Shown: positions 3,605-22,311 of the stretch, in pieces
Layout: the number at the start of each line of letters is the position of its first letter
How positions within the stretch are numbered: position 1 is the stretch's first letter
From: a virus
IMG/VR virus record: IMGVR_UViG_3300023213_000238
DNA: 64,000 nt
Strand: one strand, 5' to 3'
The notes under the pieces: model-generated
What the model was told of the DNA's origin: nothing
Database searches by the model: none
What the model saw: only the letters and a program-made list of their open reading frames with translations
Translations under genes and position numbers: made by a program

Positions 3605-4198
3605 TCATGCCGCCCCACCCTGCGCGATCGACTGAACTCGCACGAGGACTGACTTGATATTCGAGAAATAGGTATCGGCCGGCTGGGTGTAGTAACCGCC
3701 CTGGCGTAGCGGATAGACGAATGTCGGATCTCCCTGCGCGAGTAGTGAATAGGCAGATCCGAAGCGAGGTTGCTGGATGAACTTCAGATAGTCCGCCACG
3801 CTATCCTCGAGATTGTAGTAGGCACGGAAACGCTGGGTGATCGGCCGGCAGTTGCCCGCGGCATCGCACTCCGTGTCTCCACCTGTAACGGTCGGCCCCG
3901 AATCATTGGCGCCTCTCGTGATGTTGAATGCGTTGTTCCCTTGCCGGTACGCGGTCGCATTGCCCCAGCCAGACTCATAGGCGCCATGTGCAACAAGGAG
4001 CAGTTCGCCAGGGCCAGTGAAGCCGAGATTCCTGACAGCATTGCGCATCCTCGCGACAAAGTCTGCTCTCGAGCCTGGAGTATTACTGCTCACATCCTGC
4101 TTGGGCAGACCGCCGCCGTTTCCGCCGGCAAATGCCTTCGAGGCGAGGAAAAAGAATGCGAGACCTGCGAGGATCGGAATGAGGGGGCTCACGTCCAC
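3605..4198 (-). CDS. GH73 glucosaminidase/muramidase (FlgJ-like) with N-terminal TM anchor
   Basis: AHGAYESGWG, NNAFNI, FRAY..LEDSVADY, GGYYT motifs. Confidence 0.85.
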   Translation of the reverse strand: MDVSPLIPILAGLAFFFLASKAFAGGNGGGLPKQDVSSNTPGSRADFVARMRNAVRNLGFTGPGELLLVAHGAYESGWGNATAYRQGNNAFNITRGANDSGPTVTGGDTECDAAGNCRPITQRFRAYYNLEDSVADYLKFIQQPRFGSAYSLLAQGDPTFVYPLRQGGYYTQPADTYFSNIKSVLVRVQSIAQGGAA

Positions 4199-5277
4199 CG
4201 TCTAATCTTGCGACCGCGCCGAATTGCTTGAGTGAGCGCGTAGTCAGCATCGTCGTAATCAGCAAAGGCACCGAAAACTTTCGCCTGTGCTTCCCAGTCC
4301 GCCACCTCTTGTGCGGTCGCTCCTCGCCGCAGCAATTCATCGTGCAGCTGTGGAATAATTTTCGGCCAATCGGTGCCGATAATTTGAGGACCGTTTTGGA
4401 TCACCAATCGAGCAAGACGTCTCACTTCACTCGGATCCAGCGTCGCGATGGGAGTTGCTGCCGTCACTGGAGCGCCGGTGCCGTCTGCCTGTTTGATACA
4501 CGCTCCTGTACCTTGTTGGCCCGCGCCCCACGGCGCATCTGGATCACGCACCACTCGAATTGAACTGCTGAGAATATCTGGAAGGGTATAGCCTCGATTG
4601 CATGGCGGTGGCGTACTATCCCAGTCAGCCTCGGTGGCTGCGAGCACGTCTGGCGGATAGTGATTGTCCTTCGTCATTAGATCGGTCTTCGGGATCTTCT
4701 TCCAGACGCCACCGCCAAAGATTCCGATCACTGGTGTGCCGACCCAGATGTAGGTCGTGAAATTGGTGAGAGCATCTTTGAGAATAACTTTGTCGTGTGG
4801 ATTGAGACCTCGCCAGATATTGCGCAGTTCTTCATCTGTACTTCGTTTTGCCTTTGTAATTAGATCGGTGATGACGAAACCAGCGACGACGACTGCACCA
4901 GCAATAGCAAGCGGTACCACAGCGCTACCGACCAACGGCGCGAGCGCGCTGATGCCTTTACCGGCTCCGAGAGCCGCAGTGCCGACCTTGAGCGCATCGG
5001 TGGCGAGATTTGATTTTGATGTAGACGGGGTTGCGGCAGGCTGCGCAGCATTCGCGGCTGGTTGTACCGCGCCCTGTTTAGCCTGCGCCTGCTGCTGTGC
5101 TGGCCCGGCACCAGGCTTTATTTTACCGAGCAGAAAGCCGACGACGCCGCCCACCACGCCGCCGAGAGGACCGGCGGCCAGCGCTCCAATACCTCCGCCG
5201 GCAAGCGCAGTTACGAGACCGCTCTTCGGCTTTTCTGCCGGCGCGGCTGCGGCTGCTGAGAAATCATTGAAGATCAT
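4189..5277 (-). CDS. putative virion membrane protein with glycine-zipper segments
   Basis: MIFNDFSA leader; LAGGGIGALAAGPLGGVVGGVVGFLLG plus a second hydrophobic segment. Confidence 0.6.
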   Translation of the reverse strand: MIFNDFSAAAAAPAEKPKSGLVTALAGGGIGALAAGPLGGVVGGVVGFLLGKIKPGAGPAQQQAQAKQGAVQPAANAAQPAATPSTSKSNLATDALKVGTAALGAGKGISALAPLVGSAVVPLAIAGAVVVAGFVITDLITKAKRSTDEELRNIWRGLNPHDKVILKDALTNFTTYIWVGTPVIGIFGGGVWKKIPKTDLMTKDNHYPPDVLAATEADWDSTPPPCNRGYTLPDILSSSIRVVRDPDAPWGAGQQGTGACIKQADGTGAPVTAATPIATLDPSEVRRLARLVIQNGPQIIGTDWPKIIPQLHDELLRRGATAQEVADWEAQAKVFGAFADYDDADYALTQAIRRGRKIRRWT

Positions 5278-5642
5278 CGCTTCTCTCCCAACGTCACACC
5301 CAGATTATGCAAAGCATGGGCTAGAAATGCTCCGAAGAAGCCATATTGCCGGTAGGCGGCCTCGTAGAGCAATCCACCCGTAGTCGCATCCAGGACCCTA
5401 AAGGAATTGAAGCTACGAGGCAGGCCTTTGACTCTGTGTGCTAGAGCAAATGGCACCGCGGTTGAACCGATCGGCACGTCTCCGGCCGAAAGGAACGGAA
5501 GCACGCGGTAACGAAATTCCTCTTCGAGCGGCGCCGACAAGATCTCACGCGTGAAGTTCGGTTTGCTGGCCGGCATCCCGAGACGTTTCGCTGCAAGCGC
5601 CTTGAAATAGCCAAAAGCTGCGCTGGCAAGGATCGGATTCAC
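5274..5642 (-). CDS. minimal CPBP (CAAX protease type II/Abi) family intramembrane metalloprotease
   Basis: Motifs APLEEEFRYR, FALAH, AHALHN in canonical order within 122 aa. Confidence 0.75.
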   Translation of the reverse strand: MNPILASAAFGYFKALAAKRLGMPASKPNFTREILSAPLEEEFRYRVLPFLSAGDVPIGSTAVPFALAHRVKGLPRSFNSFRVLDATTGGLLYEAAYRQYGFFGAFLAHALHNLGVTLGEKR

Positions 5643-6223
5643 TTGCCGGCCTTCTTTTTCCCGAGAAAGTATCCGGCCGCTCCGCCAGCGGCGGCCCCGA
5701 CCGGACCTCCGACCAAAAAACCAGTACCGGCACCGATCAACGCCGGCCAGAGTGAACCCTTCGCAGGAACTTTTGGCTGAACCTTCGGCTGATCGATGAT
5801 GGCAGGAGGCGGAGCTGAAATAGGGACGGGAGCACTCATTTCTGGCGCGGATTCGACTTCTTCTCCGCCGCCTTCGCTAGCGGAGGCGAGCAACTCCGTA
5901 GAAACCCCCTGTGACTCTTGTGTAGCCGGCTGCATAACGACCGGCTGTTCGATAGGAGCGGCAGCGGCTGCTTCTTTAGCCAATTTCGTGCTGTAGGCTT
6001 CCTGAATCATCTGAACCGGCGCCATGACCGGTGCTGACGGCGACGGCCTAGCAGGCTGCGGAAGAACAAACGCGCGACCGGGCGGAGGCGTCGCCAGCCC
6101 CGACGGCGGTCTCACGACCAGCGCGGGGAGAGGCGGCAACCACCAGGCAGTTACCGGAGACGCGGCTCTGATACGTGGTCGCGGCACTGGAAAGCCGATA
6201 GCTGAGTAGTCGCTCAAGATCAT
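5639..6223 (-). CDS. Pro/Ala-rich protein with C-terminal glycine-zipper TM
   Basis: Start moved to MILSDYSA (ATGA overlap at 6220-6223); LIGAGTGFLVGGPVGAAAGGAAGYFLGKKK. Confidence 0.6.
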   Translation of the reverse strand: MILSDYSAIGFPVPRPRIRAASPVTAWWLPPLPALVVRPPSGLATPPPGRAFVLPQPARPSPSAPVMAPVQMIQEAYSTKLAKEAAAAAPIEQPVVMQPATQESQGVSTELLASASEGGGEEVESAPEMSAPVPISAPPPAIIDQPKVQPKVPAKGSLWPALIGAGTGFLVGGPVGAAAGGAAGYFLGKKKAGK

Positions 6224-6420
6224 GGTGAAGGAATCTGTGGCGGCGATTTGAAAAAGCAATTTGCGATGACAGCACCGGCAGCGGCACCAAGTATGCCGCG
6301 GAACAAGATCAATCCGACAACGGCTCCGGCGATAGCAGGGTTTCGCTTTACCGTCTCTACGATGCTAGACGGCTCTACCGCGCCGAACGTTCCACAGGAG
6401 TAGCAGTCTCTGATCACCAT
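6220..6420 (-). CDS. small membrane protein
   Basis: AIAGAVVGLILFRGILGAAAGAVIA hairpin-like TM; coupled to neighbours. Confidence 0.55.
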   Translation of the reverse strand: MVIRDCYSCGTFGAVEPSSIVETVKRNPAIAGAVVGLILFRGILGAAAGAVIANCFFKSPPQIPSP

Positions 6421-6421
6421 C

Positions 6422-6889
6422 TTATCTCCTGAAAGCCGAGATTACGTACAGCAGGCCAAGCACTCCTGCGATGATCGCGAAACTAGGTGCCGCGCCAGCA
6501 GCCTTCTCTGCCACAGTCGCAACAGTTACAGCCGATGATTTGAGAGCGCCCGAAACCGCCGTCCATTGAGATCCCTCGACTGAAATCCCAAGTTGGTACT
6601 GCATATCCCTGCGCAACTCATCCCCGTAGTCCACCCAGTCCTGCCATGAGTAGGGAACACCGCTAGCCTTTTGGCCCTGTTCTGCCTGTGACCGAATCGC
6701 TGTTGCCCAGTTGTCGATGCGATCACCGAGGTCTTTGTAGGCTTTTCGCACTGCGGCGGCTTGCGCAGTCAGATCGAATGGGCCGAGCGTCGCGAGACCT
6801 CGAGCCCATGCAAGGCGCAGCTGTTGAATCAGATCGTCGGCTTGCGCCGCGATCGAACCGCCAGTCTGGCCATAGTGAGAAAAGATCAT
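6422..6889 (-). CDS. putative virion membrane protein, helical, C-terminal TM
   Basis: MIFSHYGQ leader; FAIIAGVLGLLYVISAFRR tail. Confidence 0.6.
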   Translation of the reverse strand: MIFSHYGQTGGSIAAQADDLIQQLRLAWARGLATLGPFDLTAQAAAVRKAYKDLGDRIDNWATAIRSQAEQGQKASGVPYSWQDWVDYGDELRRDMQYQLGISVEGSQWTAVSGALKSSAVTVATVAEKAAGAAPSFAIIAGVLGLLYVISAFRR

Positions 6890-6896: not shown

Positions 6897-7502
6897 CTAC
6901 ATCGCCGAGGTCATCAGCTGTTCCATCGACGTTCCGCCTCCGCCGCCGCCACCCACACCTATCGGAGCTTCAGGCATCATCATCACAGGAGTTGCTACCA
7001 ACGGAGCCTCGGGCGTTGCTCCGTGCGGGCGGCCTCGACCAATCAAACCGCCGGCCAGAGCACCGACCAACGCGCCGATCGGACCTCCGAAAAGGAACCC
7101 GACGCCTGCACCACCTGCTGCGCCTCCAACGGCACCGGCAGCCGGACGCGGTCGCGGAGCTGAAATGCCGGGCCGACGGCCAATCGGTGAAAACGGCATG
7201 ATTGGCAAAATCGACCGTTCTGCGTGAACAACCCCAGCAGGCGACGCCATCCCCACCATCGCCTTTGCTAGAATCGCTTCTTTTTTCTTCTCCTCGACAT
7301 GAACGGCGCTCAAACGCTTTTCCGCGTAGCTCGCGACCTCTTTGATAGCCTGGCTTCGAGCGTCGCCTGGAGGAGCCCTCTCGAACGATTTTACGATCCG
7401 ATCAAGACTCGATTGATCCCCCGAGGTGTTGTAAGCATCAGCTTCGTGAATTCTCGACGCAGGTTTACTTAGTGCAGTGATTTGCCCGTAATAAGCGATC
7501 AT
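6897..7502 (-). CDS. putative virion membrane protein with glycine zipper
   Basis: MIAYYGQ leader; GGAAGGAGVGFLFGGPIGALVGALAGGLIG. Confidence 0.6.
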   Translation of the reverse strand: MIAYYGQITALSKPASRIHEADAYNTSGDQSSLDRIVKSFERAPPGDARSQAIKEVASYAEKRLSAVHVEEKKKEAILAKAMVGMASPAGVVHAERSILPIMPFSPIGRRPGISAPRPRPAAGAVGGAAGGAGVGFLFGGPIGALVGALAGGLIGRGRPHGATPEAPLVATPVMMMPEAPIGVGGGGGGGTSMEQLMTSAM

Positions 7503-9516: not shown

Positions 9517-9518
9517 AG

Positions 9519-9704
9519 CTAGCAAGCCTCCGGACACGCTGAAGAGCAGAATCCACAAGGAGAAGACGGTTGAGTCGGTCGAACAGCAGGCTGATCTTGC
9601 TGCGGCGGGGGCGGACTCTGCTGCGCAAGTTTCATGGCACCGAACGTCAAAGCTCCGCCGATCGCGATCGCACCAGCAACTTTCTTGACCGTGTCACTGT
9701 TCAT
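9519..9704 (-). CDS. small membrane-anchored Pro/Cys-rich protein
   Basis: N-terminal hydrophobic helix; CGFCSSACPEAC tail; coupled to neighbours. Confidence 0.5.
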   Translation of the reverse strand: MNSDTVKKVAGAIAIGGALTFGAMKLAQQSPPPPQQDQPAVRPTQPSSPCGFCSSACPEAC

Positions 9705-11166
9705 AGACTCGTGCTCCGCTCATCATGTCTACGATCGACTTTGGCGACTGCGCCCGCATGTTCGCGAGCGTGAAGTTGTTTCCCTCGATCGTGATCTCGG
9801 TCGTCGCTCCGAGCGCGTACCCGGTATTGGTGATGAAGGAGGCGCCTTCAGAAACGTTGATGCCTGTTGTATTGCTAGATCCTGTTACCCCGCTGGACGG
9901 GAAGACCACTGCATAGGTTACCTTGCCAACGAGAGAGTGCGCTGTCGGACAATTTGAAATATCGTAGCTTTGCGCGGCGAGAATCCCGGAACCCTTTGTC
10001 GTATTGCCGCCGAACCATTGGATACCGACCGAACCCCCCTGACTATTGCAGTTGAGGCGATCTTCCTGGAGCAATCCCCCGAGTATGTTCTCGAGGCGAA
10101 AGGCTGCGATCGTCTGATTCTTGCAGGAGTTGCCGATCGTATTGAGCCAACCGATCCCAACATCAAGACAGATCGCGCCGTTGTCGACGACATTGCGCTG
10201 AACTGCTAACGTCATCGGTACGGTGTTCGATTGATCCACGGCGAGGAAACGCCCGCCAGCCGGAAGAGTTGCATAGTTGTCGTCGACCTCAAGCCGCGAA
10301 GCGGTGAAGCTCCGGATTGCACCGAGCGAACCAGATCCTGTCGTAGCAAAGCTGTTGTACCTGATATTCGCAAAGCCCTCGGTTCGAATGCCAACCGAGA
10401 TACCACTGAACTTGATCTTCTGGATCGAATAGCGACCATCTGTTCGGTTGGTCGTGTTGGTATCCGTGATGAGCAAACCGCCGGCACCCGCGACCGAGCC
10501 CGTATTTGGGCCGGCCGGCAGCGCGACTGCCGAATTGATCACAGTGCCCCAGTCATCGATCGCGAACGTGCTGGTAGCGTCGGGACAGGGGTTGTGCATA
10601 TGAGAGATCGTCATGGTTGTTGCAGTATTGTCGACGATCGCAGCCGTCTGTCCTGCTCCAGTCCCGCCAGTGATCACCAAAAGGAAGCGGCGCAAGTCGC
10701 TGGCTGTCCACGTTGCGGTTGAAAGAGTGAAAACGTCAAAGGCAGAGCCAGTATTGCAGGTCGTTGATGTGAACGTACCAGTCGCGGGACCTGTCGTAGG
10801 CGTCGCGGTGATCAGTGTACCAGCAATCGTCATGAAGGCGCCATTCGCTGGCGTGACGTTTCCTTCCTGCTGGAAGTTATAGATGTACGCGCCTGTATAG
10901 TTGCCTGATGCGATCGTGACATTGGCGGGCTGCTGCATCCGCTTCGGTATTTTGTTGATCGCAGCTTGGATCGTCGCGCATGCCGACGCACCTGACGCAG
11001 TACAGGCATTCGAATCGGAGCCGAGAGTACCGTCGACGAACAGATTGAGCGTCACGGTGTTGGTCAGCTGAGAGTTCTTGGCCAAGTCGCCCTGAGTCGG
11101 CGCCAAGTCCTGCGCAACTGCGACAGATGCAAGCAGAACCGCTATGGCAAGAGATCGTTTCATCAT
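9694..11166 (-). CDS. receptor-binding spike/depolymerase-like protein (parallel beta-helix candidate) with signal peptide
   Basis: Start moved to MMKRSLAIAVLLASVAVA-QDL (ATGA overlap); LFVDGTLGSDSNACT..ACATIQAAI is typical of pectin-lyase-fold N-caps; N/G/T-rich repeats. Confidence 0.6.
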   Translation of the reverse strand: MMKRSLAIAVLLASVAVAQDLAPTQGDLAKNSQLTNTVTLNLFVDGTLGSDSNACTASGASACATIQAAINKIPKRMQQPANVTIASGNYTGAYIYNFQQEGNVTPANGAFMTIAGTLITATPTTGPATGTFTSTTCNTGSAFDVFTLSTATWTASDLRRFLLVITGGTGAGQTAAIVDNTATTMTISHMHNPCPDATSTFAIDDWGTVINSAVALPAGPNTGSVAGAGGLLITDTNTTNRTDGRYSIQKIKFSGISVGIRTEGFANIRYNSFATTGSGSLGAIRSFTASRLEVDDNYATLPAGGRFLAVDQSNTVPMTLAVQRNVVDNGAICLDVGIGWLNTIGNSCKNQTIAAFRLENILGGLLQEDRLNCNSQGGSVGIQWFGGNTTKGSGILAAQSYDISNCPTAHSLVGKVTYAVVFPSSGVTGSSNTTGINVSEGASFITNTGYALGATTEITIEGNNFTLANMRAQSPKSIVDMMSGARVYEQ

Positions 11167-11399
11167 TTCCTCAGAAAGAACCAGAGACCTACGAGGCCCA
11201 CGCTGCCGATAATCCACGGCCATGCGCTCGGACCGAGAACTCCGCGGCCAGTGAGAGAGGCAACCGTCCACGATGGAGCAATTAGACCCTGGCTGGCGTA
11301 GCATGCTTTATAGGCCTCGGGATCAGGCTTCGAACCATAGGGACCACTGGCCTGATCACAACGAAGACCGGGGATTTGAGAAAAATCATTGAGAATCAT
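11163..11399 (-). CDS. small virion membrane protein
   Basis: MILNDFSQ leader; C-terminal TM WPWIIGSVGLVGLWFFLRK. Confidence 0.6.
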   Translation of the reverse strand: MILNDFSQIPGLRCDQASGPYGSKPDPEAYKACYASQGLIAPSWTVASLTGRGVLGPSAWPWIIGSVGLVGLWFFLRK

Positions 11400-13836: not shown

Positions 13837-14817
13837 TTAGAGTCTCCCGTACCTCGCGACGTCGACGAAGAGCCCGCTCAATCGTGCGGCACCGCTGTTG
13901 TCCACCATCACAATACCGCCATCGTCGGCTGCCAGTCGAGTAATACCGCCCGTGAGAACCTGGAACGGGTTCTGCGTCGCTAGGTTACCGGACGTGCCGA
14001 TCGAGCTGAAAGATCCCCAGGTGACATCCTCGAAGATCGGATTCGTGAGGTTCACAGACCCGTCACTATTCAGGCCAAAATCGTTCGTCGCCTGATAGAT
14101 GATGCGCATCGCAGACGCCATCGCGAGCGAAGAGGCACCGCGTAGCGCGATGATCGTTCTGGTTCCTTCGGTAATCGCGACGGCGGCCTGCCCTTTTTGA
14201 ATGATCTGGTTCGCGCCCTGCAACGCCTGCGTCCAGGGAAACCGCATCGGCCAGTTCAAAGGAGCGTTGTTGAAAGCGCCGCCTGCGGTCAGATCAGTAG
14301 GTTGCTTGATCGGCACCCTCATTCGATGGAAAAGAAGCTCTGGGTTGCCGTGCCACAGCACGTCAGCATCAGGTGTCGTGAAGACGTAGAGCTGGACAAT
14401 ACCACCGCCAAGCCAGCCGAACGGCAACCCGTAGGTGAATCCGTTGAAAGCGCACGACTCAGCGATCGGCTTACCGGTCGGGCGCACGATATGTCCGGGC
14501 TTCAAAATGAAAACGGTGGACTGCGTCGACTTGTCACCGGATCTGAATTGGACTGCCAACGGGGCCTGAGAGGCGGGATGGAGCCCTACGGCGTAACCGC
14601 GCAGCTGGCTCTCGGCCTTCGTCGATGGAATGATGGCTTGGTTTGGTGGCGCCGACAGGATCGCGTTCTGCAACTGCGTACTATCGAAGAACGACTGGAA
14701 CGCGAACTGCTGCACGATCGGCACGGATGGCGAGAGGACGTCTTTATACTGAACTGGCTGAACCAGCTCCGGCGCTCGCTTCATTCGAGGATAATCTGGT
14801 ACCTGTCCGAATCTCAT
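13837..14817 (-). CDS. beta-rich putative structural protein (penton/vertex candidate)
   Basis: Start moved to MRFGQVPD (GAGGAGG SD, ATGA overlap); follows the capsid-like paralogues. Confidence 0.5.
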   Translation of the reverse strand: MRFGQVPDYPRMKRAPELVQPVQYKDVLSPSVPIVQQFAFQSFFDSTQLQNAILSAPPNQAIIPSTKAESQLRGYAVGLHPASQAPLAVQFRSGDKSTQSTVFILKPGHIVRPTGKPIAESCAFNGFTYGLPFGWLGGGIVQLYVFTTPDADVLWHGNPELLFHRMRVPIKQPTDLTAGGAFNNAPLNWPMRFPWTQALQGANQIIQKGQAAVAITEGTRTIIALRGASSLAMASAMRIIYQATNDFGLNSDGSVNLTNPIFEDVTWGSFSSIGTSGNLATQNPFQVLTGGITRLAADDGGIVMVDNSGAARLSGLFVDVARYGRL

Positions 14818-15821
14818 TGCGCCTCCTCGAGCTTCACGTTTCTGTACCCGACTAGGGCCATTTGCAACTGCGCTATGGTGCCGAGAGCACTCACAAGGCC
14901 CGGCGCCGCGAAAAAGGAAGTCGGTGTTGCCGCAGCCGCCAGATTGACGATGAAGAACGTCTTCGGAGCCATCACGGTATTGACCGTCCACGTCTTGTCG
15001 TACAGATGAAATAGGTCGTAGACCGAAGTGAAATCCCTGACGAGAACCGATCCATACGAACTCACCATACGAAGTGTAGTAGTCTCCGAACCGATGAATG
15101 AAGCACCTCTGATATCGGCCTCGCCGCCATTAGGTCCGGAAACATTGTCATCTGTAGCCGTGACTATTCGCCCGTTGAACCGTTGGAGATGCAACGGCGA
15201 ATTGAACGGGTTTACCAGATCAGTTTCTCGCGAAGCATCAGTCGTAGCTGACGATTGATTGTCGACGCGGAAAAATTTGGAGTTCCAGAACGAGACCCAC
15301 GGCGCCTGGATGTACTTCGGTTTCGGATAATTGATGGGCAGGATTCGACCGATGTACGAGATCTCGATGTTGAATGGCGAGGCCGAATCGGTCAGAATCG
15401 TACCACCCGGCATCGCTGGCAGCTGATACTGGAAGCGCGGTTGCAAAATCTCGCCGGGCGGAATGTAAAGCGGCTTTGGAAGGCGCCAGACTCGACCCGT
15501 ACCATCATTCAACTCCTGTGGGTTGAGACTCTTACCAAGAACTCCGAGCGGAACGAATCCGTTCGTTATCGGCAACCGCCCCAACGTGAAGGAGACACCG
15601 GTAAAATCGATCGCCTGTATGAATCCCAGAGTCGCTGCTACGTTTGTCAATACCGGCGTGAAGTGAATCTCGTCGATGAGCATCGGCAAGCGCTCTGGAT
15701 TGGCGAGGAAAGATGTGTCGGGGATGCTGAGCGACTTACCGTTGCTGAATGCCGGCGTCTGCGCAGACAGCAACACTGGATAGGTCGTTCGAAGAATATC
15801 GCGAGGATTGTAGTTAGACAT
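14814..15821 (-). CDS. capsid-like two-domain beta protein, paralogue C
   Basis: Start moved to MSNYNPR (GGAGG SD); LANPERLPMLIDEIHF, WRLPKPLYIPPGE, ETDLVNPFNSP, LVGYR shared with the two upstream genes. Confidence 0.6.
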   Translation of the reverse strand: MSNYNPRDILRTTYPVLLSAQTPAFSNGKSLSIPDTSFLANPERLPMLIDEIHFTPVLTNVAATLGFIQAIDFTGVSFTLGRLPITNGFVPLGVLGKSLNPQELNDGTGRVWRLPKPLYIPPGEILQPRFQYQLPAMPGGTILTDSASPFNIEISYIGRILPINYPKPKYIQAPWVSFWNSKFFRVDNQSSATTDASRETDLVNPFNSPLHLQRFNGRIVTATDDNVSGPNGGEADIRGASFIGSETTTLRMVSSYGSVLVRDFTSVYDLFHLYDKTWTVNTVMAPKTFFIVNLAAAATPTSFFAAPGLVSALGTIAQLQMALVGYRNVKLEEAQ

Positions 15822-16791
15822 GGAGTGCCTCCTCCCGCCAACCAATCAGCGAGACCATCGGCGAAATGTTGCTGTTCGCTGGAGCACTGTAGTAGAAAGT
15901 GTAGCGATCGCGAGGCAGCAAAATTGATGGCGCGGTCCAGGATCGCCGAGCCGGATTGAAAACCGACGGCCACGTTGTGTACTCGCGAATTACGTCGCGA
16001 CCACGAGCATCCGACATCTTGACGATAAACTGTTGAGGATTCGGCGTCGAGCCAACGAAGGCACTGCTCTGTAGCTCATCAAGCGCGCCGGCTCCGCCTT
16101 GATCCGATCTTTGTAGCCGACCGACAAAGCGCTGTATATGAAGCGGCGTCATGAACGCATTGTAGAGATCCGTATCCGCGCTGATCGCGGCAGTCGCTCC
16201 GCGCTTTCCGATGAAGCTCGCCACGTACGGCACTGCGATTTGCCGTGGGACAGGCGTATTATCGGGAAGCCGCCGACCGCTATAGCTGATGGTCGCGCGC
16301 ACCGTCGCAACAGGCGACGACTCGTTGGTTCGGCTGAAAGATGGAACTAGAACCTGTCCGGGGCTGATGAAGAGCGGCGCCGGCAATTTCCATCTAAATC
16401 GACTGTAAGTGGCTGGTATAGCCGTGACGTCAACACCATTTTGTCCTTGAATGTTTTCAGATTGAACCTTCCCTGCGTTAGAGAACGAGACACTATTGCT
16501 GAGCATGATCGGGCCGAAGAGCCAGACTGGAATCGATCCAGACGTGATGCCGATACGGCCGAGGTCGAGCTTGACGCGGACCGAACCCCCAAAGTTCAAC
16601 AGTCCGCTCGCAACGGCGACAGAGTGCTTCAGAATGATGTTGATCTCGTCGATCACCATCGGCTGCCTGTACTGATTCTGCAACAGGCCAAGATCTGGAA
16701 TGACGGCCCCTGACGGCTCCGAGAGATTGACGCCCGCAGCCAGCAGGATCGGGACGCCACCCGATTGAAGTGATTGAATAGCCGGTTTCAT
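15814..16791 (-). CDS. capsid-like two-domain beta protein, paralogue B
   Basis: QPMVIDEI, FRWKLPAPLFISPGQ, DTDLYNAF..P, LIGWR. Confidence 0.6.
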   Translation of the reverse strand: MKPAIQSLQSGGVPILLAAGVNLSEPSGAVIPDLGLLQNQYRQPMVIDEINIILKHSVAVASGLLNFGGSVRVKLDLGRIGITSGSIPVWLFGPIMLSNSVSFSNAGKVQSENIQGQNGVDVTAIPATYSRFRWKLPAPLFISPGQVLVPSFSRTNESSPVATVRATISYSGRRLPDNTPVPRQIAVPYVASFIGKRGATAAISADTDLYNAFMTPLHIQRFVGRLQRSDQGGAGALDELQSSAFVGSTPNPQQFIVKMSDARGRDVIREYTTWPSVFNPARRSWTAPSILLPRDRYTFYYSAPANSNISPMVSLIGWREEALHV

Positions 16792-17936
16792 CGCTTGATC
16801 TCCACGTCGCGATAGCCGACGATTGAAATGAACGCCTGCATCAGAAAGGTCGTGTTTTGATCTACTGGAGCAGCCTTCTGTAGCTCTGCCGCATAGAATG
16901 AGCGCGGCGGCATCTGATGCGGTACCTCCCAGCTCTTAGTTGGATGTTGGAACACCGATTGGAACAGCGAGAGGTTCGGGATCAGTGGCTCACCGCGAGA
17001 CGAGAACATTCGGATCGTCAGAAGATTGGAACCGAAGTCCGCAGCATCAATGGTCGGCGTGAGCACGTTGATCGCATTCGCACCGCCCGACTGCGCCGTG
17101 TTGTTCAGCAGATTGATCCTCCCGATCATTCGCTGCACGTTGATCGGGATGTCGAACGGATTCACAAGGTCAGTTTCCTTCGATACCTCTGAATCCGCGA
17201 CCGAATAGGCGTTGAAAACTTTCGATGTGTAGGCCGAGACCCACGGGATCGCGATCTTACCCTTCGGGCGATAACCCGGCGACATCGTGCGCGCCGCATA
17301 GCTCACGATTACAGTCGCAGCCTGCGGAATGAATCCGAGATGCGCGATATGGGGCGTAAGAGCTTGTCCCGGCGCGATGTAAAGCGGCTTGGGAAGATTC
17401 CACCTGAAATGTGCATGGTAATTTCCGCTGTTCTGACCGTTAGACTCACCGCCTGGATCGATTTCGGCGGTGTCGACGCGGAGAGATCTACCGAAGCACC
17501 AGAGCGGAATGAATCCCGACGTGAGATGCTGCTCATCTAGCGTGAAGCTCGCGGCTATCGTGGCGCCTGTCAGAATCGGCAGCGTAGGCAACCCAGCAAG
17601 TCCGCCGATCGGAGACCGGATCTGAAACTTGATCTGATCGATCAGCATCGGAAGATTGAGCGGGTTGCGCAAAGATTCGGCGTTCACGCCGGAGCTGCTG
17701 CCTGCGGTCAGCGTCGCCTGCGCCGCGAGATGGATTGGCGCCTCGGGAAAGCTTCCCGACAACGAGTTCGGAAAATACGGCCCGCGGGGCGCTGGTGCGC
17801 CCGGCACGATTCTCGGCTTTCCCGGAGGAGGTCGGCGAGCCGGTCGTCCTGGAGGTGGCCGAATTGTGACCGGCAATCCAGGAGGAGGTCTTCGGCCCGG
17901 TCGAACTGGAACGCCTGAAGGCGGTGTCGGTGGCAT
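16788..17936 (-). CDS. capsid-like two-domain beta protein, paralogue A, with Pro/Arg-rich N-arm
   Basis: LRNPLNLPMLIDQI, FRWNLPKPLYIAPGQ, ETDLVNPFDIP, IVGYR; AGGAG SD. Confidence 0.6.
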   Translation of the reverse strand: MPPTPPSGVPVRPGRRPPPGLPVTIRPPPGRPARRPPPGKPRIVPGAPAPRGPYFPNSLSGSFPEAPIHLAAQATLTAGSSSGVNAESLRNPLNLPMLIDQIKFQIRSPIGGLAGLPTLPILTGATIAASFTLDEQHLTSGFIPLWCFGRSLRVDTAEIDPGGESNGQNSGNYHAHFRWNLPKPLYIAPGQALTPHIAHLGFIPQAATVIVSYAARTMSPGYRPKGKIAIPWVSAYTSKVFNAYSVADSEVSKETDLVNPFDIPINVQRMIGRINLLNNTAQSGGANAINVLTPTIDAADFGSNLLTIRMFSSRGEPLIPNLSLFQSVFQHPTKSWEVPHQMPPRSFYAAELQKAAPVDQNTTFLMQAFISIVGYRDVEIKR

Positions 17937-17950
17937 CTTCAACTTCTCCT

Positions 17951-18870: not shown

Positions 18871-19248
18871 TCACCTCTTCATCTTCATCAGGAACAGAAT
18901 CCCGACGACTCCCACCCCGGCCAGAGCGATATGCGTGACGGTCAGGCCGCCAAGAATTCCGCCTGGCTTACCCAGCCGTGCATAGCCGGGTTGATACTGT
19001 GACGCCGGTCCAGATCCGGGAGCGCCCGAACCTGGATACGGCTGAGTTGCCGGAGCTGCCGGAGCCGGCTTGAACGCGGTAACAACTGCCGCTGTACCTG
19101 ACGCCAGATCCTTGAGCCCACCCGTAAGATCCGACCACCAATCACCGAACGCTGCGTAGCGCCGGTAGTTGTCGAATGCTTCATCGTCTCTGGCGTCACC
19201 CTGCCAGACACGCTCGGCATTGGCTTGTCCGTCGTCAATGATAGCCAT
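18871..19248 (-). CDS. virion membrane protein
   Basis: YAAFGD motif, Pro/Gly linker, C-terminal TM ending MKMKR. Confidence 0.6.
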   Translation of the reverse strand: MAIIDDGQANAERVWQGDARDDEAFDNYRRYAAFGDWWSDLTGGLKDLASGTAAVVTAFKPAPAAPATQPYPGSGAPGSGPASQYQPGYARLGKPGGILGGLTVTHIALAGVGVVGILFLMKMKR

Positions 19249-19266: not shown

Positions 19267-19863
19267 CTACGGAGCGAGGCGTTCCATCATGTCTTCGTTG
19301 CCGTAGTCGGACATCGCGCTAGCCGACAGGTCGGATAGCACCTGCGACTGCACCGGGTTGTCGACGATCACGCCGGCATAGTCATTGTAGCCGGGATTAC
19401 CCGTGATGTAGTTGTCGACGATCACGCCGTTGTAACCAGCGTACTCGGCCATCGAAGGCAGAGTTACGAAGTCGGCGTACCGCTTGAGCGGACCGAGATC
19501 CCAGAGGTAGCCGACCAGAACAGTCGCACCACCCGCGATGACGCCGCCTGCCAGAGCCGCATTAGCCCACTGCGGTTTCTTTGCAGCTTTCAGCGCAACG
19601 CCGAGACCGAGCCCGCCTGCGATTCCGCCCAGAAGCGGGTAGAATCGCGCGACCATAGGTGGCACCTTGTCTTCGAGCTTCGTCGCGCTCAAAAGCCACT
19701 TGAGCAGAACGGTCCCGCCGACTACCGCAGCACCACCGCCGAGAACGAGCGGAAGATTGTGTTTTACTGCGCGCATCGCATCCTTGCCGACTCCAGTGAA
19801 GCCCGGCATGGTGATGAACGCGCCGTAGCGTCTTCGATGACGCCGTCTGTGATACCTTGCCAT
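19267..19863 (-). CDS. polytopic membrane protein with Arg-rich N-terminus and acidic repeated C-tail
   Basis: MARYHRRRHRRRYGAF; three TM segments; GVIVDN twice. Confidence 0.65.
   Translation of the reverse strand: MARYHRRRHRRRYGAFITMPGFTGVGKDAMRAVKHNLPLVLGGGAAVVGGTVLLKWLLSATKLEDKVPPMVARFYPLLGGIAGGLGLGVALKAAKKPQWANAALAGGVIAGGATVLVGYLWDLGPLKRYADFVTLPSMAEYAGYNGVIVDNYITGNPGYNDYAGVIVDNPVQSQVLSDLSASAMSDYGNEDMMERLAP
19357..19429. repeat. 19-bp direct repeat, period 54 nt
   Basis: GTTGTCGACGATCACGCCG at 19357-19375 and 19411-19429. Confidence 0.9.
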
Positions 19864-19905: not shown

Positions 19906-20076
19906 CTAGTGCCGACGCATGTAATTGCGCATGCACTTTTTCCGAGCGCGCTTGCCCTTGCCAGCGCAGTGTTTCGACGCACGACCAAGCTTCGTGCTGC
20001 CACGACGGTGCCGGCGGCGCCGCCTACGGTGGCGGCCGAACGCGTCATACCCTTCCAGAATTGCGATCCTTGCCAT
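19906..20076 (-). CDS. protamine-like protein (56 aa)
   Basis: Not in ORF track; MARIAILEGYDAFGRHRRRRRRHRRGSTKLGRASKHCAGKGKRARKKCMRNYMRRH; purine-rich SD. Confidence 0.7.
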   Translation of the reverse strand: MARIAILEGYDAFGRHRRRRRRHRRGSTKLGRASKHCAGKGKRARKKCMRNYMRRH

Positions 20077-20132
20077 TGCCTCTTCCTTCTTCCCTCATAA
20101 AACGGGCGGGACCATTCCCTCCCGGTACCGCT

Positions 20133-20471
20133 TCACATCCGCTTACGAAAACACGCATGCGCGATCTTGTTCCGCGCTGTGAACAACATCCCTTCTGAAG
20201 GTTTGCCACACGATTTCTCCGCCGCTTGAGTGAGCATCCGAAGTGCCTCTACGCAACGACCTTCCATTGCGGCCTCGCCGGCACGAGAGGCCAGATGCGC
20301 AGCATCCCGACCTCCGCCGTGATGACCGTAGCGATGTCGTCGCCGCCGGCCAAAGGCGCGCATCGGATCATGGAACATCCTCTGCTGGCGCAGGTGGCGA
20401 CGGTGCCGACGGCGTCCGAAGCCGCGATAGGACTTCGGAGCACGAATGTATTTGACCTTCTTCCGCGCCAT
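20133..20471 (-). CDS. Arg/His-rich core-like protein
   Basis: RGFGRRRHRRHLR..RAFGRRRRHRYG followed by a small helical domain. Confidence 0.7.
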   Translation of the reverse strand: MARKKVKYIRAPKSYRGFGRRRHRRHLRQQRMFHDPMRAFGRRRRHRYGHHGGGRDAAHLASRAGEAAMEGRCVEALRMLTQAAEKSCGKPSEGMLFTARNKIAHACFRKRM

Positions 20472-20475
20472 ACAC

Positions 20476-20661
20476 TTACCGCCTTCGCCTTCGTCGATGA
20501 CGTCTGTGCGCTCGCTCGAAATACTTCTTCCAACGCCGATGACACGCGGTGAGCGCTTTCTTGCCTCGACGCTTTCGTATCCCTTTGCAGGCGATTGCGG
20601 CTTTCACCATCGGCGATGCCGCAGCTGCTTTCGCTCGTGCGATGTTTGATCGATAGCCCAT
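20476..20661 (-). CDS. protamine-like protein (61 aa)
   Basis: R/K-rich, ends RRHRRRRRR; TAATG overlap. Confidence 0.7.
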   Translation of the reverse strand: MGYRSNIARAKAAAASPMVKAAIACKGIRKRRGKKALTACHRRWKKYFERAHRRHRRRRRR

Positions 20662-21140
20662 TAACGCTTCCCTCGTTTCTTTCGAAGAGTCAGCAGAACG
20701 CCAACTCCGAGCAGCCCGGCGCCGATCAGCAACACGTTGGTGGAAAGGCCGCCGATCAGACCGGCTCCTGATACTGGCGCGAACGTACCGCCTGGCTGAG
20801 CAGCAGACGGCGCAGCAGCAGCAGCAGCAGGACCGGCCACCGGGAGCTTATCGGGCGGAAGCCCTCGCTCAGCACGGCCAAAGATCGTCCAGGGTGCAAA
20901 GAAACCAGTGACCTTACACTTCGGGAGCGCGCCCGCATCAGGCTGACTACCGCTCGGCCCGTACCGCTGATCGCACCAATCTGTCCACGCGTCACCGAAC
21001 CCGAGATATGCCGACGGTGAGACATAGCCGCGGTATTGTGTGCTGAGCGGCACGTCGACGGCGCCATATCGCCGTGCTCGCGCTCCGTAGTATCGAGTCG
21101 TAAGAGGAACATCTTGCGCGCCGAAGTTATCGAAGATCAT
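20661..21140 (-). CDS. virion membrane protein
   Basis: Start moved to MIFDNFGA (TGATG overlap); internal GAxDVPLxTxY repeat; C-terminal TM followed by RKKRGKR. Confidence 0.6.
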   Translation of the reverse strand: MIFDNFGAQDVPLTTRYYGARARRYGAVDVPLSTQYRGYVSPSAYLGFGDAWTDWCDQRYGPSGSQPDAGALPKCKVTGFFAPWTIFGRAERGLPPDKLPVAGPAAAAAAPSAAQPGGTFAPVSGAGLIGGLSTNVLLIGAGLLGVGVLLTLRKKRGKR

Positions 21141-21760
21141 CAGAGCCACTCGATCAGGTTGTAGCCGCCCGGAGGGTTCCAACCGACGACACCATCGCCA
21201 CCGACATCAGCTGAAGTGTCGAGTGCGACGACGCCCTTCCACGGCTGCTTTTTTGGAAAACGAACAACGGCGAAGACGTGATCTGGTTCATTCACCTTTC
21301 GACCCCATGCGTTCAAGCCCGCCTGGAATCCGCCAGCTGCCGCCAGCGCGGCAACGAGCGAAGCGTGACCGTCGCAGTCCTCGGCGCACATGCCTTCCTT
21401 GCACATCTCGAGGATCCGATAGGGCGAGGTGAAGAGATCGAATGCGACGGGATCGCCGATGTAGCGCAGCCCGCGCTGGAGACCTGGCACCTTGTCGGTC
21501 CCGTACTTGACCGCGTTGTAAATCGCGTCCAGCTCGCACCAGTCATCGCGAGCGTCGCACTCCATCGTGATCGCGGTCACGGCGCGGCGAAGTGTTGCCA
21601 GATGAGGCTCGAACAGCGACCGGCGTGTCAGCTTGGCGAGAGTCTTGAGAGCAGCCTGCTGGTCTCGAGTCGAAACGAATCGAGCCCGAGGCTGCACCTC
21701 GACCGAGCGCTCTTCACCTAGATATCCGAATGTCCCGTACTGACGACGATGAAGTCTCAA
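21140..21760 (-). CDS. transglutaminase-like cysteine protease
   Basis: EDCDGHASLVAAL (Cys), DHVFAVV (His), ALDTS (Asp) triad in canonical order; first gene of the structural operon. Confidence 0.8.
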   Translation of the reverse strand: MRLHRRQYGTFGYLGEERSVEVQPRARFVSTRDQQAALKTLAKLTRRSLFEPHLATLRRAVTAITMECDARDDWCELDAIYNAVKYGTDKVPGLQRGLRYIGDPVAFDLFTSPYRILEMCKEGMCAEDCDGHASLVAALAAAGGFQAGLNAWGRKVNEPDHVFAVVRFPKKQPWKGVVALDTSADVGGDGVVGWNPPGGYNLIEWL

Positions 21761-21882
21761 AGCGCCTCAGCTCATAGAGGTCGCGCGACTTATCGGGTAC
21801 GTGGCACCCCTTAAGTAAAGAGGTTGTGGCGTGAAGGCAACAGATCCTTGCGCTGATAAAGAAAGCAGCGCATAACTATGAG

Positions 21883-22311
21883 GTGATTCTCCACAGCACG
21901 CGCTCCGGATTCGGTACTTTTGGGGCATTCCAGCTCGTGCCGCCGATGCTTGTCGGCTCTGTCCGGCAGATACTCGCCGGTCAGGGAGTAGACCCCAGCA
22001 TCCTCAGCGACAGTGGCTCCATCGACGGTGCTAACCTTCTGTCGATCGCCTTCGATCAGGTCGAGATTCGTACGGCTGCCACACCAACGGTCAAGTTTTC
22101 ATTGGCCGGCCCGACGGATCCTCAAACGGATGCGCTACTTCGCGAGTTGCAACCGGCCGTCATCCTGACCGGACGCGCTGGAACCGCCAAGATTTCTCCC
22201 TACGGCGTGCCTGGCGGAGTCAGCGACGTCTTCAAGAGCGCCGGAGTCCAGATCGGGATCGGCGCGCTACTCGCGATCGCCGCTGCTGTGCTGATCGTTC
22301 GAGCGCTATAG
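21883..22311 (+). CDS. membrane-anchored protein
   Basis: MILHSTRSGFGTFGA leader; C-terminal TM. Confidence 0.55.
   Translation: MILHSTRSGFGTFGAFQLVPPMLVGSVRQILAGQGVDPSILSDSGSIDGANLLSIAFDQVEIRTAATPTVKFSLAGPTDPQTDALLRELQPAVILTGRAGTAKISPYGVPGGVSDVFKSAGVQIGIGALLAIAAAVLIVRAL

Follow-up and report, generated by a model that had tools for sequence, protein, structure and literature searches.

Why should at least seven otherwise unrelated membrane-anchored proteins of a single virus begin with almost the same eight residues? The question arises in a window of 64,000 nucleotides (the whole stretch of DNA analysed here), which is part of the ~74-kb genome of an undescribed large tailless double jelly-roll (DJR) bacterial virus. 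Proteins of its late operon open with the consensus M-I-(F/L)-x-(D/N/H)-(F/Y)-(G/S)-(A/Q), here called the tag, and further proteins bear longer leaders that close in aromatic-Gly-(A/D/Q) (Table 1; single genes are named below by the coordinate of their start). A preliminary description of this DNA had listed these leaders and had proposed that they mark a cleavage site or a sorting signal, with a protease encoded at the head of the operon. We found all of the listed leaders, at minus-strand ATGs or, for the plus-strand gene 21883, at a GTG.

Table 1. Coordinates of the tagged and leader-bearing genes, the candidate enzymes and the neighbouring virion genes in the window
Feature	Coordinates	Strand	Basis or remark
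Tagged 362-aa membrane protein MIFNDFSA, ORFan	4189..5277	-	Sequence
Rce1/CPBP-like intramembrane protease, 122 aa, second candidate processing enzyme	5274..5642	-	Pfam PF02517
Tagged 194-aa protein MILSDYSA, C-terminal Gly-zipper, KKKAGK tail	5639..6223	-	Sequence, independent gene call
66-aa membrane protein, longer leader MVIRDCYSCGTFGA	6220..6420	-	Sequence, independent gene call
Tagged 155-aa C-tail-anchored protein MIFSHYGQ	6422..6889	-	Sequence, independent gene call
Tagged 201-aa protein MIAYYGQ, Gly-zipper TM	6897..7502	-	Sequence, independent gene call
Tagged 78-aa C-tail-anchored protein MILNDFSQ	11163..11399	-	Paralogue of the 20661..21140 protein core
Tagged 85-aa C-tail-anchored protein MILADFRD	11873..12130	-	ORF conserved in L026, L027
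Conserved 326-aa structural protein MRFGQ, non-membrane	13837..14817	-	ATGA overlap and GAGGAGG Shine-Dalgarno; independent gene call concurs
Three paralogous DJR major capsid proteins	14814..17942	-	Paralogy by sequence, AF2 model, PDB fold matches
C-tail-anchored protein, YAAFGD at residues 31-36	18871..19248	-	Sequence reading
Multi-TM protein	19267..19863	-	MA(R/K), Arg run, (F/Y)G, then (A/D)(F/Y)(I/V)(S/T)xP
Three small Arg/His/Lys-rich proteins (61, 112, 56 aa)	19906..20661	-	Sequence reading
Tagged protein MIFDNFGA	20661..21140	-	Start overlaps stop of enzyme gene 21140..21760 as TGATG
Transglutaminase-fold Cys-His-Asp enzyme, candidate maturation protease	21140..21760	-	Homologues, AF2 model, fold matches; heads operon
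C-tail-anchored protein, leader (M)ILHSTRSGFGTFGA before conserved FQLVPP domain	21883..22311	+	Divergently transcribed

Six minus-strand ORFs begin with M-I-[FL]-x-[DNH]-[FY], and MIAYYGQ marks a seventh carrier. In a six-frame translation of the window, the strict pattern MI[FL].[DNH][FY] occurs six times, always at a gene start, on the same strand and in the same operon; 0.029 occurrences are expected from amino-acid frequencies, and 300 dinucleotide-preserving shuffles gave a mean of 0.027 and a maximum of 1. The database's own gene calls for this DNA (L036) have identical starts at 14817, 12130, 11399, 7502, 6889, 6420, 6223 and 5277. An AGGAG-like Shine-Dalgarno sequence lies 6-10 nt upstream of most starts, and the rest (6223, 12130, 14817 and 21140) lie in a stop/start overlap (ATGA or TGATG). 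Synonymous codons differ among the copies of the tag (TTG or CTC for Leu, TTC or TTT for Phe, ATC or ATT for Ile, TCA or TCT for Ser), so the constraint acts on the peptide, and the tag is very probably functional at the protein level.

Past the tag, the carriers have no detectable similarity to one another, with the exception of one pair (11399 and 21140, 44% over 41 aa, E 2.5e-6). All of them end in a C-terminal TM or Gly-zipper and a basic tail (in the 6223 protein, the zipper matches Pfam Gly-zipper_Omp at E 0.016), and C-tail anchoring in a membrane is common to all strict-tag carriers, a point which is new relative to the preliminary description. The late operon encodes many such proteins, which are presumably components of an internal virion membrane; to our knowledge, no common N-terminal tag has been described for the membrane proteins of PRD1. 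Tags are limited to the structural operon, where they are enriched relative to non-structural genes; this is the comparison on which the preliminary description had staked its proposal. Among structural proteins alone, aromatic-Gly is over-represented within the first 25 residues (28/73 against 10/55 others by the database gene calls, p 5e-4), but this enrichment is just 2.1-fold, and (F/Y)(G/S)(A/D/Q) by itself is frequent by chance within proteins. MRFGQ and the longer variants match the core tag solely at its aromatic-Gly-(A/Q) end. A unified motif, [IVLMA][FL].[DGN][FY], is found at nine structural N-termini and at no non-structural one.

For the capsid protein at 15814-16791, an AF2 model (pLDDT 81.5) has 152 PDB matches with E<=1e-3, the best 50 of which are all DJR capsid proteins (PBCV-1 Vp54, PRD1/PR772 P3, SGIV, STIV); as modelled, the capsid proteins are double jelly-rolls of the PRD1/adenovirus lineage. 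Of the three small basic proteins, the 56-aa one starts with MARIAILEGYDAFG, a start of the form M.IA(V/I)(L/F)EG(Y/F) that recurs in the relatives L009, L010, L029, G001 and G003, and the 112-aa protein contains RGFGRRR and RAFGRRRR. Because the virus combines the double jelly-roll lineage with Arg-rich core-like proteins, the comparison with adenovirus that had been drawn earlier is apt. Membrane-containing DJR phages (PRD1/Tectiviridae, PM2 and those grouped by Yutin et al. 2018) have in common with this virus a DJR capsid protein, a HerA/FtsK-type ATPase and a virion operon with numerous small membrane proteins and lytic enzymes of the SLT type. The virus differs from these phages in its genome of ~60-80 kb, its family A polymerase, its three DJR paralogues and its Arg-rich proteins. 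Both the words 'protease' and 'maturation' are absent from the text of the 2018 survey.

Conservation in related genomes was a check proposed with the original observation. The strict MI(F/L)xD(F/Y) tag is largely confined to the window genome, and strong tag similarity is five times commoner within than between genomes. Relatives have tag families of their own, likewise on proteins with a C-tail anchor: L032 has three copies of MSFY, L028 has three of M(L/Y)(I/V)D, and M.IA.(L/F)EG(Y/F) is found in G001, G003, L002, L009 and L010. Orthologues of most tagged distal genes were not found: a database search with the 5277 protein returned only itself, and the 11399 protein was not found in L026 or L027. 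The 12130 ORF, on the other hand, is kept in L027 and in L026, where the copy has 71% identity and starts with MILSDFRDGH; its positional counterpart in L032 starts with MSFYYG, L032's own tag. Orthologues of the 14817 protein start with MRLEGF (L029) or have ..FKDFENA (L030) or ..LKDFRAFSDA (L034) near the start.

In the ortholog families of the 21140, 21883 and 19863 proteins, leaders of different lengths precede an aromatic-Gly junction that is preserved just before the conserved domain, the pattern expected of a propeptide junction. For example, orthologues of the 21883 protein in L003 and L002 retain a G(F/Y)G junction behind leaders of 15 to >24 aa, and nine aligned orthologues of the 19863 protein have Arg runs of differing length, most of them with the junction retained. 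The 21140 protein itself has, in order, (F/Y)GA..DVPL repeats, LGFGD, a W..WCD domain, a C-terminal TM and an RKKRGKR tail.

The first gene of the operon had been described as transglutaminase-like with an intact Cys-His-Asp triad, and both statements are borne out. The enzyme has 10 homologues; across 11 homologues, Cys129, His161 and Asp181 do not vary, and its AF2 model (pLDDT 84.8) matches 3isr, PNGase, PeiP, transglutaminases and NATs. Relatives, three of them complete genomes with terminal repeats, also have it as the leading gene of the structural module. It resembles bacterial transglutaminase-like Cys proteases, PNGase and PeiP/PeiW (PF01841 superfamily) in fold and Cys-His-Asp order, but differs from them in heading a virion module and in forming a separate family (53 clusters at E<=1e-30), of which 2/11 members match Pfam Transglut_core (PF01841) and the window's own enzyme falls below the threshold of every Pfam model. 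An assignment to the adenain/Ulp1 type was rejected, the fold being transglutaminase-like. Since this fold is common to amidases, isopeptidases, transglutaminases and acetyltransferases, the label 'protease' is an assumption. Of the earlier proposal of cleavage or sorting, the protein-level tag and the transglutaminase-fold enzyme stand, and the enzymatic activity does not follow, as the fold cannot tell a protease from an isopeptidase, amidase or transglutaminase.

The reading that we prefer, tentatively and by analogy, is that of a T4-CTS-like or adenovirus-like recognition tag which the transglutaminase-fold enzyme probably trims. A single virus-encoded partner would read a common recognition peptide made up of a hydrophobic Met-Ile-Phe/Leu cap and an aromatic-Gly junction, with a flexible linker behind them. 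On the model of the T4 CTS and the adenovirus pVI/pVII propeptides, the tag would first help to draw proteins of the membrane and core into the particle during assembly, and the Cys129-His161-Asp181 enzyme would then clip it after the junction Gly/Ser. The enzyme may also process itself, as its disordered residues 1-23 contain the same motif (QYGTFGYLG, limited to close relatives). Besides the breadth of the fold class, the missing Pfam match of the window's enzyme, the narrow spread of the enzyme's own motif and the confinement of the strict tag largely to one genome, two further points count against this reading: judging by their basic C-tails, the carriers may have a C-in topology, with N-termini across the membrane from a cytoplasmic enzyme, and the AT-rich codons of the tag could be partly due to selection on translation initiation.

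The closest precedents for the preferred reading come from two different capsid architectures. The T4 CTS, a tag of 10 residues, loads proteins into the particle and is then cut by the prohead protease gp21, which itself bears a site close to the N-terminus (PMC9026906). As in the T4 proteins IPI/IPII/IPIII, the tag in the window is a short element at the extreme N-terminus of proteins with diverged mature parts. T4, however, has an HK97-fold head, a herpesvirus-assemblin-type serine protease, cleavage after Glu (L/I-x-E) and soluble cargo, whereas the window has double jelly-rolls, a Cys-His-Asp transglutaminase-fold enzyme, an aromatic-Gly/Ser junction and membrane-anchored carriers. Adenovirus protease (adenain, AVP, MEROPS C5) cuts pVI, pVII, pre-mu, pVIII, pIIIa and pTP at (M/I/L)XGG↓X or (M/I/L)XGX↓G, and the N-termini of pVI and pVII occupy one hexon pocket (PMC4246237; bioRxiv 10.1101/857581). 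Points in common are the double jelly-roll, a Cys protease (a candidate one in the window), short sites in which a hydrophobic residue lies upstream of Gly (candidate sites in the window), protamine-like core proteins and N-terminal propeptides (putative in the window). Differences are the transglutaminase-like rather than Ulp1/adenain fold, the other site consensus, the bacterial host, a likely internal membrane and the DNA/peptide cofactors of adenovirus, of which no sign was seen here.

It is also conceivable, if somewhat unlikely, that the tag is never cleaved and acts as a docking peptide, which would bind an inner-face pocket of the DJR capsomers or an assembly factor and recruit the viral membrane patch under the growing shell, leaving the enzyme to do another job. 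Such a peptide would need the conserved Met-Ile-Phe/Leu at the extreme N-terminus more than a cleavage site would; the tags also sit on flexible Ala/Gly/Pro-rich linkers of membrane-anchored proteins, and their genome specificity is what co-evolution with a structural partner would produce. The cargo-loading peptides of encapsulins are one precedent. Another is given by the pVI/pVII peptides in the hexon cavity (bioRxiv 10.1101/857581). Docking nevertheless leaves unexplained why leaders of variable length close in the same aromatic-Gly junction, and why junctions are found in tandem in the 21140 protein and between the Arg runs of core-like proteins.

An improbable alternative has no connection with virion sorting: the similarity would reflect selection for efficient initiation on a 5' coding region that is AT-rich and weakly structured, or an N-terminal amphipathic element that aids the post-translational insertion or the stability of tail-anchored proteins. 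Indeed, only tail-anchored proteins carry the tag, GC in codons 2-6 of the tagged genes is 0.34, whereas it is 0.53 (sd 0.12) for 92 other genes, and I, F, N, D and Y have AT-rich codons. Yet the order of residues is fixed beyond composition (we estimate fewer than 0.1 such arrangements even with I/F/N/D/Y-rich starts), the codons at positions 7-8 are rich in GC, the tag is missing from the highly expressed capsid genes, and tags of relatives are GC-richer (LEGY, MSFY).

The window offers a second processing candidate, a link which is also new: the putative Rce1/CPBP-like protease encoded by 5274-5642, translationally coupled between the tagged genes 6223 and 5277, could process the tags at the membrane in place of the soluble transglutaminase-fold enzyme. 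The protein matches PF02517 at E 1.1e-5 (26 bits, cut-off 22.4), the CPBP motifs EExxxR, FxxxH and HxxxN are legible in it, and its would-be substrates are all membrane proteins; a precedent is MroQ, which takes the N-terminal leader off AgrD. We consider this quite improbable, given that its 122 aa are far below the length of characterised CPBP enzymes and that, among the sampled relatives, the gene is present only in the window, L029 and L030, while three complete relatives without it still have tag families and the transglutaminase-fold enzyme.

Very improbable is a true transglutaminase or ligase, for which the tags would be acyl-donor or acceptor sites covalently linked to the capsid or to one another. 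The fold class does hold real transglutaminases and TglA, and Gln stands immediately after the junction in four tags (YGQ, YGQ, FSQ, FGQ) and comes one residue later in a fifth (FGAQ), but other tags have Ala or Asp at this position, bacterial transglutaminase-like proteins are thought to be mostly hydrolases, and we know of no enzyme-made cross-links in virions of this lineage. Finally, chance or an artefact of the chosen start codons, which might be suspected of a pattern defined post hoc with some starts moved, is effectively refuted by the shuffle counts and the independent gene calls, together with a Shine-Dalgarno sequence or coupling at each start and the conservation of the small 12130 ORF.

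Cleavable leaders with a similar ending are also known outside virions: double-glycine leaders are short, end in Gly-Gly/Ala/Ser and are removed by a papain-like Cys protease (C39). Here, in contrast, both an ABC transporter and a C39 domain are absent, and the leaders have 5-15 residues and sit on membrane proteins, as against 15-30 residues on secreted peptides. The relatives' M.IA(V/I)LEGY(G) tag, in turn, agrees in L029 with the adenovirus site (M/I/L)-X-G-X↓G.

A short peptide recurs at the N-termini of otherwise unlike proteins in the structural operon of this virus. It has the form M-I-(F/L)-x-(D/N/H)-(F/Y)-(G/S)-(A/Q), and we refer to it as the tag and to its aromatic-Gly/Ser end as the junction. 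All of the leaders that the preliminary description had reported at minus-strand starts are present in the translated window DNA (see table), and its relocation of several gene starts was upheld by the gene calls made on the same DNA in a public metagenome (L036), which coincide exactly at 14817, 12130, 11399, 7502, 6889, 6420, 6223 and 5277. An AGGAG-like site lies 6-10 nt ahead of five of them, and the remaining ones overlap the preceding stop as ATGA or TGATG. The ORFs beginning at 12130 and 11399 are small and overlap longer ORFs in other frames; the longer ORFs have their true, signal-peptide-like starts further down, the 12130 ORF is kept in two related contigs at 64-71% identity, and both small ORFs are genuine coding sequences with C-terminal membrane anchors.

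Leader peptides and capsid paralogues in the window, with the basis of each assignment
Feature	Position	Strand	Basis
MIFNDFSA	start 5277	-	translation of window
MILSDYSA	start 6223	-	translation of window
MVIRDCYSCGTFGA	start 6420	-	translation of window
MIFSHYGQ	start 6889	-	translation of window
MIAYYGQ	start 7502	-	translation of window
MILNDFSQ	start 11399	-	translation of window
MILADFRD	start 12130	-	translation of window
MRFGQ	start 14817	-	translation of window
MIFDNFGA	start 21140	-	translation of window
(M)ILHSTRSGFGTFGA	GTG start 21883	+	translation of window
Three tandem double jelly-roll (DJR) major capsid paralogues	14814-17942	-	paralogy and model of one (15814-16791)

Translated in all six frames, the 64-kb window contains the strict pattern MI[FL].[DNH][FY] six times, always on the same strand, in the same operon and at a gene start, against a mean of 0.027 (maximum 1) in 300 dinucleotide-preserving shuffles and an expectation of 0.029 from amino-acid frequencies. 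This excess is far beyond chance even after a generous penalty for the post-hoc definition of the pattern. Enrichment of aromatic-Gly near the N-terminus is a weaker signal than the strict tag, yet a real one: counted only on the databases' own gene calls in the window and four relatives, its frequency per position is 0.0170 in the first 25 residues of structural-module proteins versus 0.0081 elsewhere in them (p 5e-4), and 0.0095 versus 0.0070 in other genes, which is not significant. It is carried by 28/73 structural proteins as opposed to 10/55 others (p 0.011; a separate count was similar), and the proposed enrichment over the non-structural background thus holds. A unified pattern, [IVLMA][FL].[DGN][FY], which was defined post hoc, marks nine structural N-termini and no non-structural one, and is 7.5-fold enriched at the former relative to the remaining parts of structural proteins (p 1.8e-5). 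Internal (F/Y)(G/S)(A/D/Q) triplets in the accessory proteins encoded at 23788-28309 were discarded, the chance rate being about one per 400-500 residues (partly an estimate).

The copies of the tag differ in their codons (Leu TTG/CTC, Phe TTC/TTT, Ile ATC/ATT, Ser TCA/TCT), position 6 alternates between Phe and Tyr, and they have no upstream sequence in common beyond the Shine-Dalgarno ribosome-binding site; it is therefore the peptide that is constrained. A repeat or recombination signal at the DNA level was rejected, since no more than about 9 nt are common to the copies, which vary at synonymous sites and upstream have only the Shine-Dalgarno sequence in common.

The window belongs to a large tailless virus of bacteria, so far undescribed, in the PRD1-adenovirus lineage. 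An AlphaFold model of one capsid paralogue (15814-16791; pLDDT 81.5, built on 21 paralogues and orthologues) matches only DJR capsid proteins (PBCV-1 Vp54, PRD1/PR772 P3, SGIV, STIV), with 152 structural matches at E<=1e-3; a DJR major capsid protein is a trait of that lineage. Searches of about 40 window proteins against Pfam and PHROGs were mostly blank, and almost entirely so in the operon. Among the genes that could be named, 49734-51563 matches HerA_C, DUF87 and a PHROG terminase family and encodes a HerA-like ATPase with a putative role in packaging, while others encode a family A polymerase, an SNF2 helicase and an MT-A70 methylase. Lytic or modifying enzymes of the operon include an SLT protein, a glucosaminidase, an M15 peptidase and a glycosyltransferase, and Arg-rich, core-like proteins of 56-112 aa are also encoded there. 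A scan around the operon start found no promoter or terminator. Relatives came as contigs from soil and groundwater metagenomes and from IMG/VR; three of them, of 58, 59 and 75 kb, have direct terminal repeats and are complete, and the window's own contig is about 74 kb long. At least 12 small membrane proteins of the operon suggest that an internal lipid membrane presumably underlies the capsid, and the tagged proteins are presumably the virus's membrane proteins.

In every carrier of the strict tag, a Lys/Arg-rich tail (RKKRGKR, FLRK, SSRKS, AFRR and KKKAGK were seen) comes after a hydrophobic or Gly-zipper segment. This segment is placed at or close to the C-terminus, the 5277 protein being the exception in that its segment directly follows the tag. 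A membrane segment is also present in the 7502 protein and in both proteins whose leaders end in GTFGA, being C-terminal in 7502 and 21883, and the 19248 protein (YAAFGD) and the multi-TM 19863 protein are likewise membrane proteins. The position of the 5277 segment apart, the carriers are, judging by their sequences, tail-anchored membrane proteins, an aspect that is new relative to the preliminary description. Its view that the carriers are unrelated stood up to BLAST beyond the tag with the exception of one pair, the 78-aa 11399 protein being a paralogue of the core of the 21140 protein. An Ala/Gly/Pro-rich linker follows the tag, as expected for a tethered recognition peptide or an exposed cleavage site. 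In the 21140 protein (20661-21140, minus strand), residues 1-50 consist of the tandem repeat FGAQDVPLTTRYYG, then YGAVDVPLSTQYRG, then YLGFGD; these junction copies are a recent expansion, since the orthologue in the closest relative (L003) is without the repeat. Signal-peptide-like or lipoprotein-like starts (MMKRSLAIAVLL.., MTRKLQAIAAIL.., MKFLKVALIAAILCSC) were noted at 8494-9558, 9694-11163, 11409-11876 and 22324-22701, and the particle therefore seems to mix N-terminally anchored or exported proteins with tagged, C-tail-anchored ones.

Among relatives the strict window-type tag is rare; G004 has MILSGFNF and MLVSNFRF. Three ortholog families combine a leader of variable length with a conserved junction just before the conserved domain: the 21140 family (an MI(F/V) start, 10-48 variable residues, (F/Y/L)G(D/G), then W..WCD), the 21883 family (an MI(L/V)H start, a variable stretch, G(F/Y)G..FG, then FQLVPP) and the 19863 family (MA(R/K), an Arg run of variable length, (F/Y)G, then (A/D)(F/Y)(I/V)(S/T)xP). 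Other genomes have tag families of their own on C-tail-anchored proteins, with MSFY three times in L032/L033 and M(L/Y)(I/V)D three times in L028. A further type, M.(I/V/L)A(V/I/M)(L/F)(E/Q)G(Y/F), was found in G001, G003, L002, L009, L010, L029 and L030, where it sits on a protamine-like or a tail-anchored protein, G001 and G003 having it on both kinds; there is a single copy in the window, MARIAILEGYDAFG at 20076. In L032, the protein that corresponds by position to the window's MILADF protein starts with MSFYYG, so that one and the same gene bears the tag of its own genome. Within genomes, 2% of tag pairs are very similar, versus 0.4% between genomes, a 5-fold difference. Taken together, the leader and junction families, the lineage-specific tags and the unified pattern point to a family-wide system. 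The tagged 362-aa protein (5277) returned only itself from the database search for homologues, and G001, G003 and G004 show little conservation of the distal tagged genes.

The protein encoded at the head of the operon (21140-21760, minus strand) had been described as a transglutaminase-like protease. Cys129, His161 and Asp181 follow one another in the order typical of the transglutaminase superfamily and are invariant in 11 sequences (10 homologues were found), as are four further Cys, which may hold a metal as in PNGase. The AF2 model (pLDDT 84.8) has the expected core, a Cys-bearing helix packed on the beta-sheet that carries His and Asp, and Foldseek matched it with probability 1.0 to the putative cysteine protease 3isr and to PNGase 2f4m, and further to the pseudomurein endoisopeptidase PeiP, transglutaminases (TG2) and arylamine acetyltransferases (NAT), all at modest TM-scores of 0.35-0.5. 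A search of PDB sequences with the enzyme profile gave nothing useful, and Pfam Transglut_core (PF01841) matches 2/11 family sequences (best E 4.3e-7), the window copy matching no family. Triad and modelled fold thus place the enzyme in the transglutaminase-like superfamily, with the window copy outside the curated HMM; the designation as a protease is unconfirmed, as the fold class spans several hydrolases and transferases and the matches themselves cover peptidase, amidase, isopeptidase and transferase activities. The family comprises 53 clusters at E<=1e-30 and 418 at E<=1e-10. All relatives that were recovered by means of the enzyme, the three complete genomes among them, have it at the head of the structural module; it was not found in the examined stretches of L028-L034. 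Its residues 1-23 are predicted to be disordered and hold QYGTFGYLG, with NYGFFGD or AYGHYGR in the same region of close relatives; a motif-bearing N-terminus as a general trait of the family was rejected, aromatic-Gly being at background in the extensions of 50 representatives. Prediction of a complex between enzyme residues 24-206 and residues 1-30 of the 21140 protein reached a score of 0.01, the mark being 0.32, which speaks neither for nor against binding. Several close homologues (P0015, P0022, P0025, P0030, P0036, P0037, P0046, P0048 and P0050), 300-530 aa in length, align to the profile in two parts; the break between these parts falls near profile position 110-119, shortly ahead of the catalytic Cys region, and may reflect an intein or some other insertion. 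An intein-bearing gene lies nearby in L001.

In this DJR virus, unrelated membrane-anchored proteins thus share a tag at the protein level, next to a Cys-His-Asp enzyme; that the peptide is functional is very probable. The original observation was confirmed and extended, while its interpretation as a cleavage or sorting system is in part supported. Our preferred reading, which we put forward tentatively as a possible rather than an established pathway, is that one virus-encoded partner would read the tag, which would serve assembly first, following the logic of T4 and adenovirus, and would then be clipped after the junction Gly/Ser by the transglutaminase-fold enzyme. Clipping is favoured because the junction, and not its distance from Met1, is constant in leaders of 5 to >24 residues, because junction copies recur in tandem in the 21140 protein and between the Arg runs of core-like proteins, as in adenovirus pVII and pre-mu, and because the disordered N-terminus of the enzyme itself bears the motif. 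Against it stand the several activities of the enzyme class and the basic C-tails, whose suggested topology might put the N-termini out of reach of a cytoplasmic enzyme. A tag that docks onto the capsid and stays uncleaved is a rather unlikely alternative.

An effect on translation initiation or membrane insertion draws on the low GC content of codons 2-6 in the tagged genes (5277, 6223, 6889, 7502, 11399, 12130 and 21140), which is 0.34, the value for 92 other genes being 0.53. These AT-rich codons may owe something to selection on initiation, which cannot, however, account for the fixed order of residues or the GC-rich codons 7-8; as an explanation of the tag, an initiation or insertion effect is distinctly unlikely. 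The clipping might instead be done by the Rce1/CPBP-like protein encoded at 5274-5642 (minus strand), which we consider quite improbable: it matches PF02517 at 26 bits (cut-off 22.4) and the EExxxR, FxxxH and HxxxN motifs of the family are readable, but among the sampled relatives orthologues were found only in L029 and L030 and, because the gene is missing from three complete relatives, it is not the universal partner. At 122 aa it is much shorter than characterised members of that family. The Gln right after the junction in several tags would fit a role of the transglutaminase-fold enzyme as a ligase that staples the flexible tags of membrane and core proteins to the inner face of the capsid or to each other, a role that seems highly doubtful; if true, it would mean enzyme-catalysed membrane-to-shell cross-linking in the virion, with tags co-evolving with the enzyme in each viral lineage. 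Chance, finally, is a negligible contender against six occurrences where shuffles gave 0.027.

To our knowledge, neither a maturation protease nor a shared loading signal is known from prokaryotic DJR viruses. Both are hallmarks of the related viruses of eukaryotes, namely adenoviruses, virophages and giant viruses, and separately of T4-like phages. The text of a 2018 survey of prokaryotic DJR viruses has neither 'protease' nor 'maturation', and our literature searches brought up no account of the group, nor of any transglutaminase-like protease from DJR phages. N-terminal virion-targeting or propeptide tags with a dedicated enzyme are a known kind of system, but have not been described in this virus lineage or with this enzyme fold. 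By function, the closest systems are the T4 capsid targeting sequence, ten N-terminal residues common to diverged internal proteins that direct targeting and are then cut by gp21 (PMC9026906), and adenovirus maturation, in which a cysteine protease cuts (M/I/L)XGG|X or (M/I/L)XGX|G in core and membrane-lytic precursors whose N-terminal peptides share one hexon pocket (PMC4246237; bioRxiv 10.1101/857581). The window system would work like both and is a member of neither. It has, as T4 does, a short tag at the extreme N-terminus of otherwise unrelated virion proteins; unlike T4, its capsid is not HK97-fold, its enzyme is not gp21-like and its site consensus differs. With adenovirus it has in common a DJR capsid and basic core proteins, but its aromatic-(G/S)-(A/Q/D) junction departs from the adenain consensus, which only some LEGY(G) tags of relatives fit, and the adenain/Ulp1 fold is absent among the top 50 fold matches of the enzyme. 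Should the enzyme recognise or clip the tags, this would be an adenovirus-like maturation in bacteria built with an unrelated protease, with a bearing on the evolution of virion maturation in the DJR lineage. An eight-residue tag that loads a membrane-containing particle would, if confirmed, also offer a practical handle for cargo loading.

Several further observations concern the make-up of the module. Its most conserved gene encodes a 235-aa protein (18060-18767; 87% identity to L003), and in L003 an HNH endonuclease gene (5463-6197), absent from the window, lies between this gene and the first capsid paralogue. In L001, the first capsid paralogue (14102-15343) starts with a twin-arginine-like stretch (..TRRQFLRGAAAAGAAAAFG..) after EGYGA, which is odd for a capsid protein. 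The operon ends with a 1225-aa protein with glycosyltransferase-2 and methyltransferase domains (L036 13931-17608; window 1347, running past the left end), and beyond it, on the opposite strand of L036, are a sigma-70 family factor, a thioredoxin-like gene and a DUF7768 gene. A 518-aa protein (26753-28309, minus strand) that contains the internal repeat RGGQMSD twice is conserved in relatives, where its gene directly precedes that of the enzyme (L001 6981-8564, L002 7437-9002); in the window about 5 kb of extra genes, one of them RadC/JAB-like, lie between the two.
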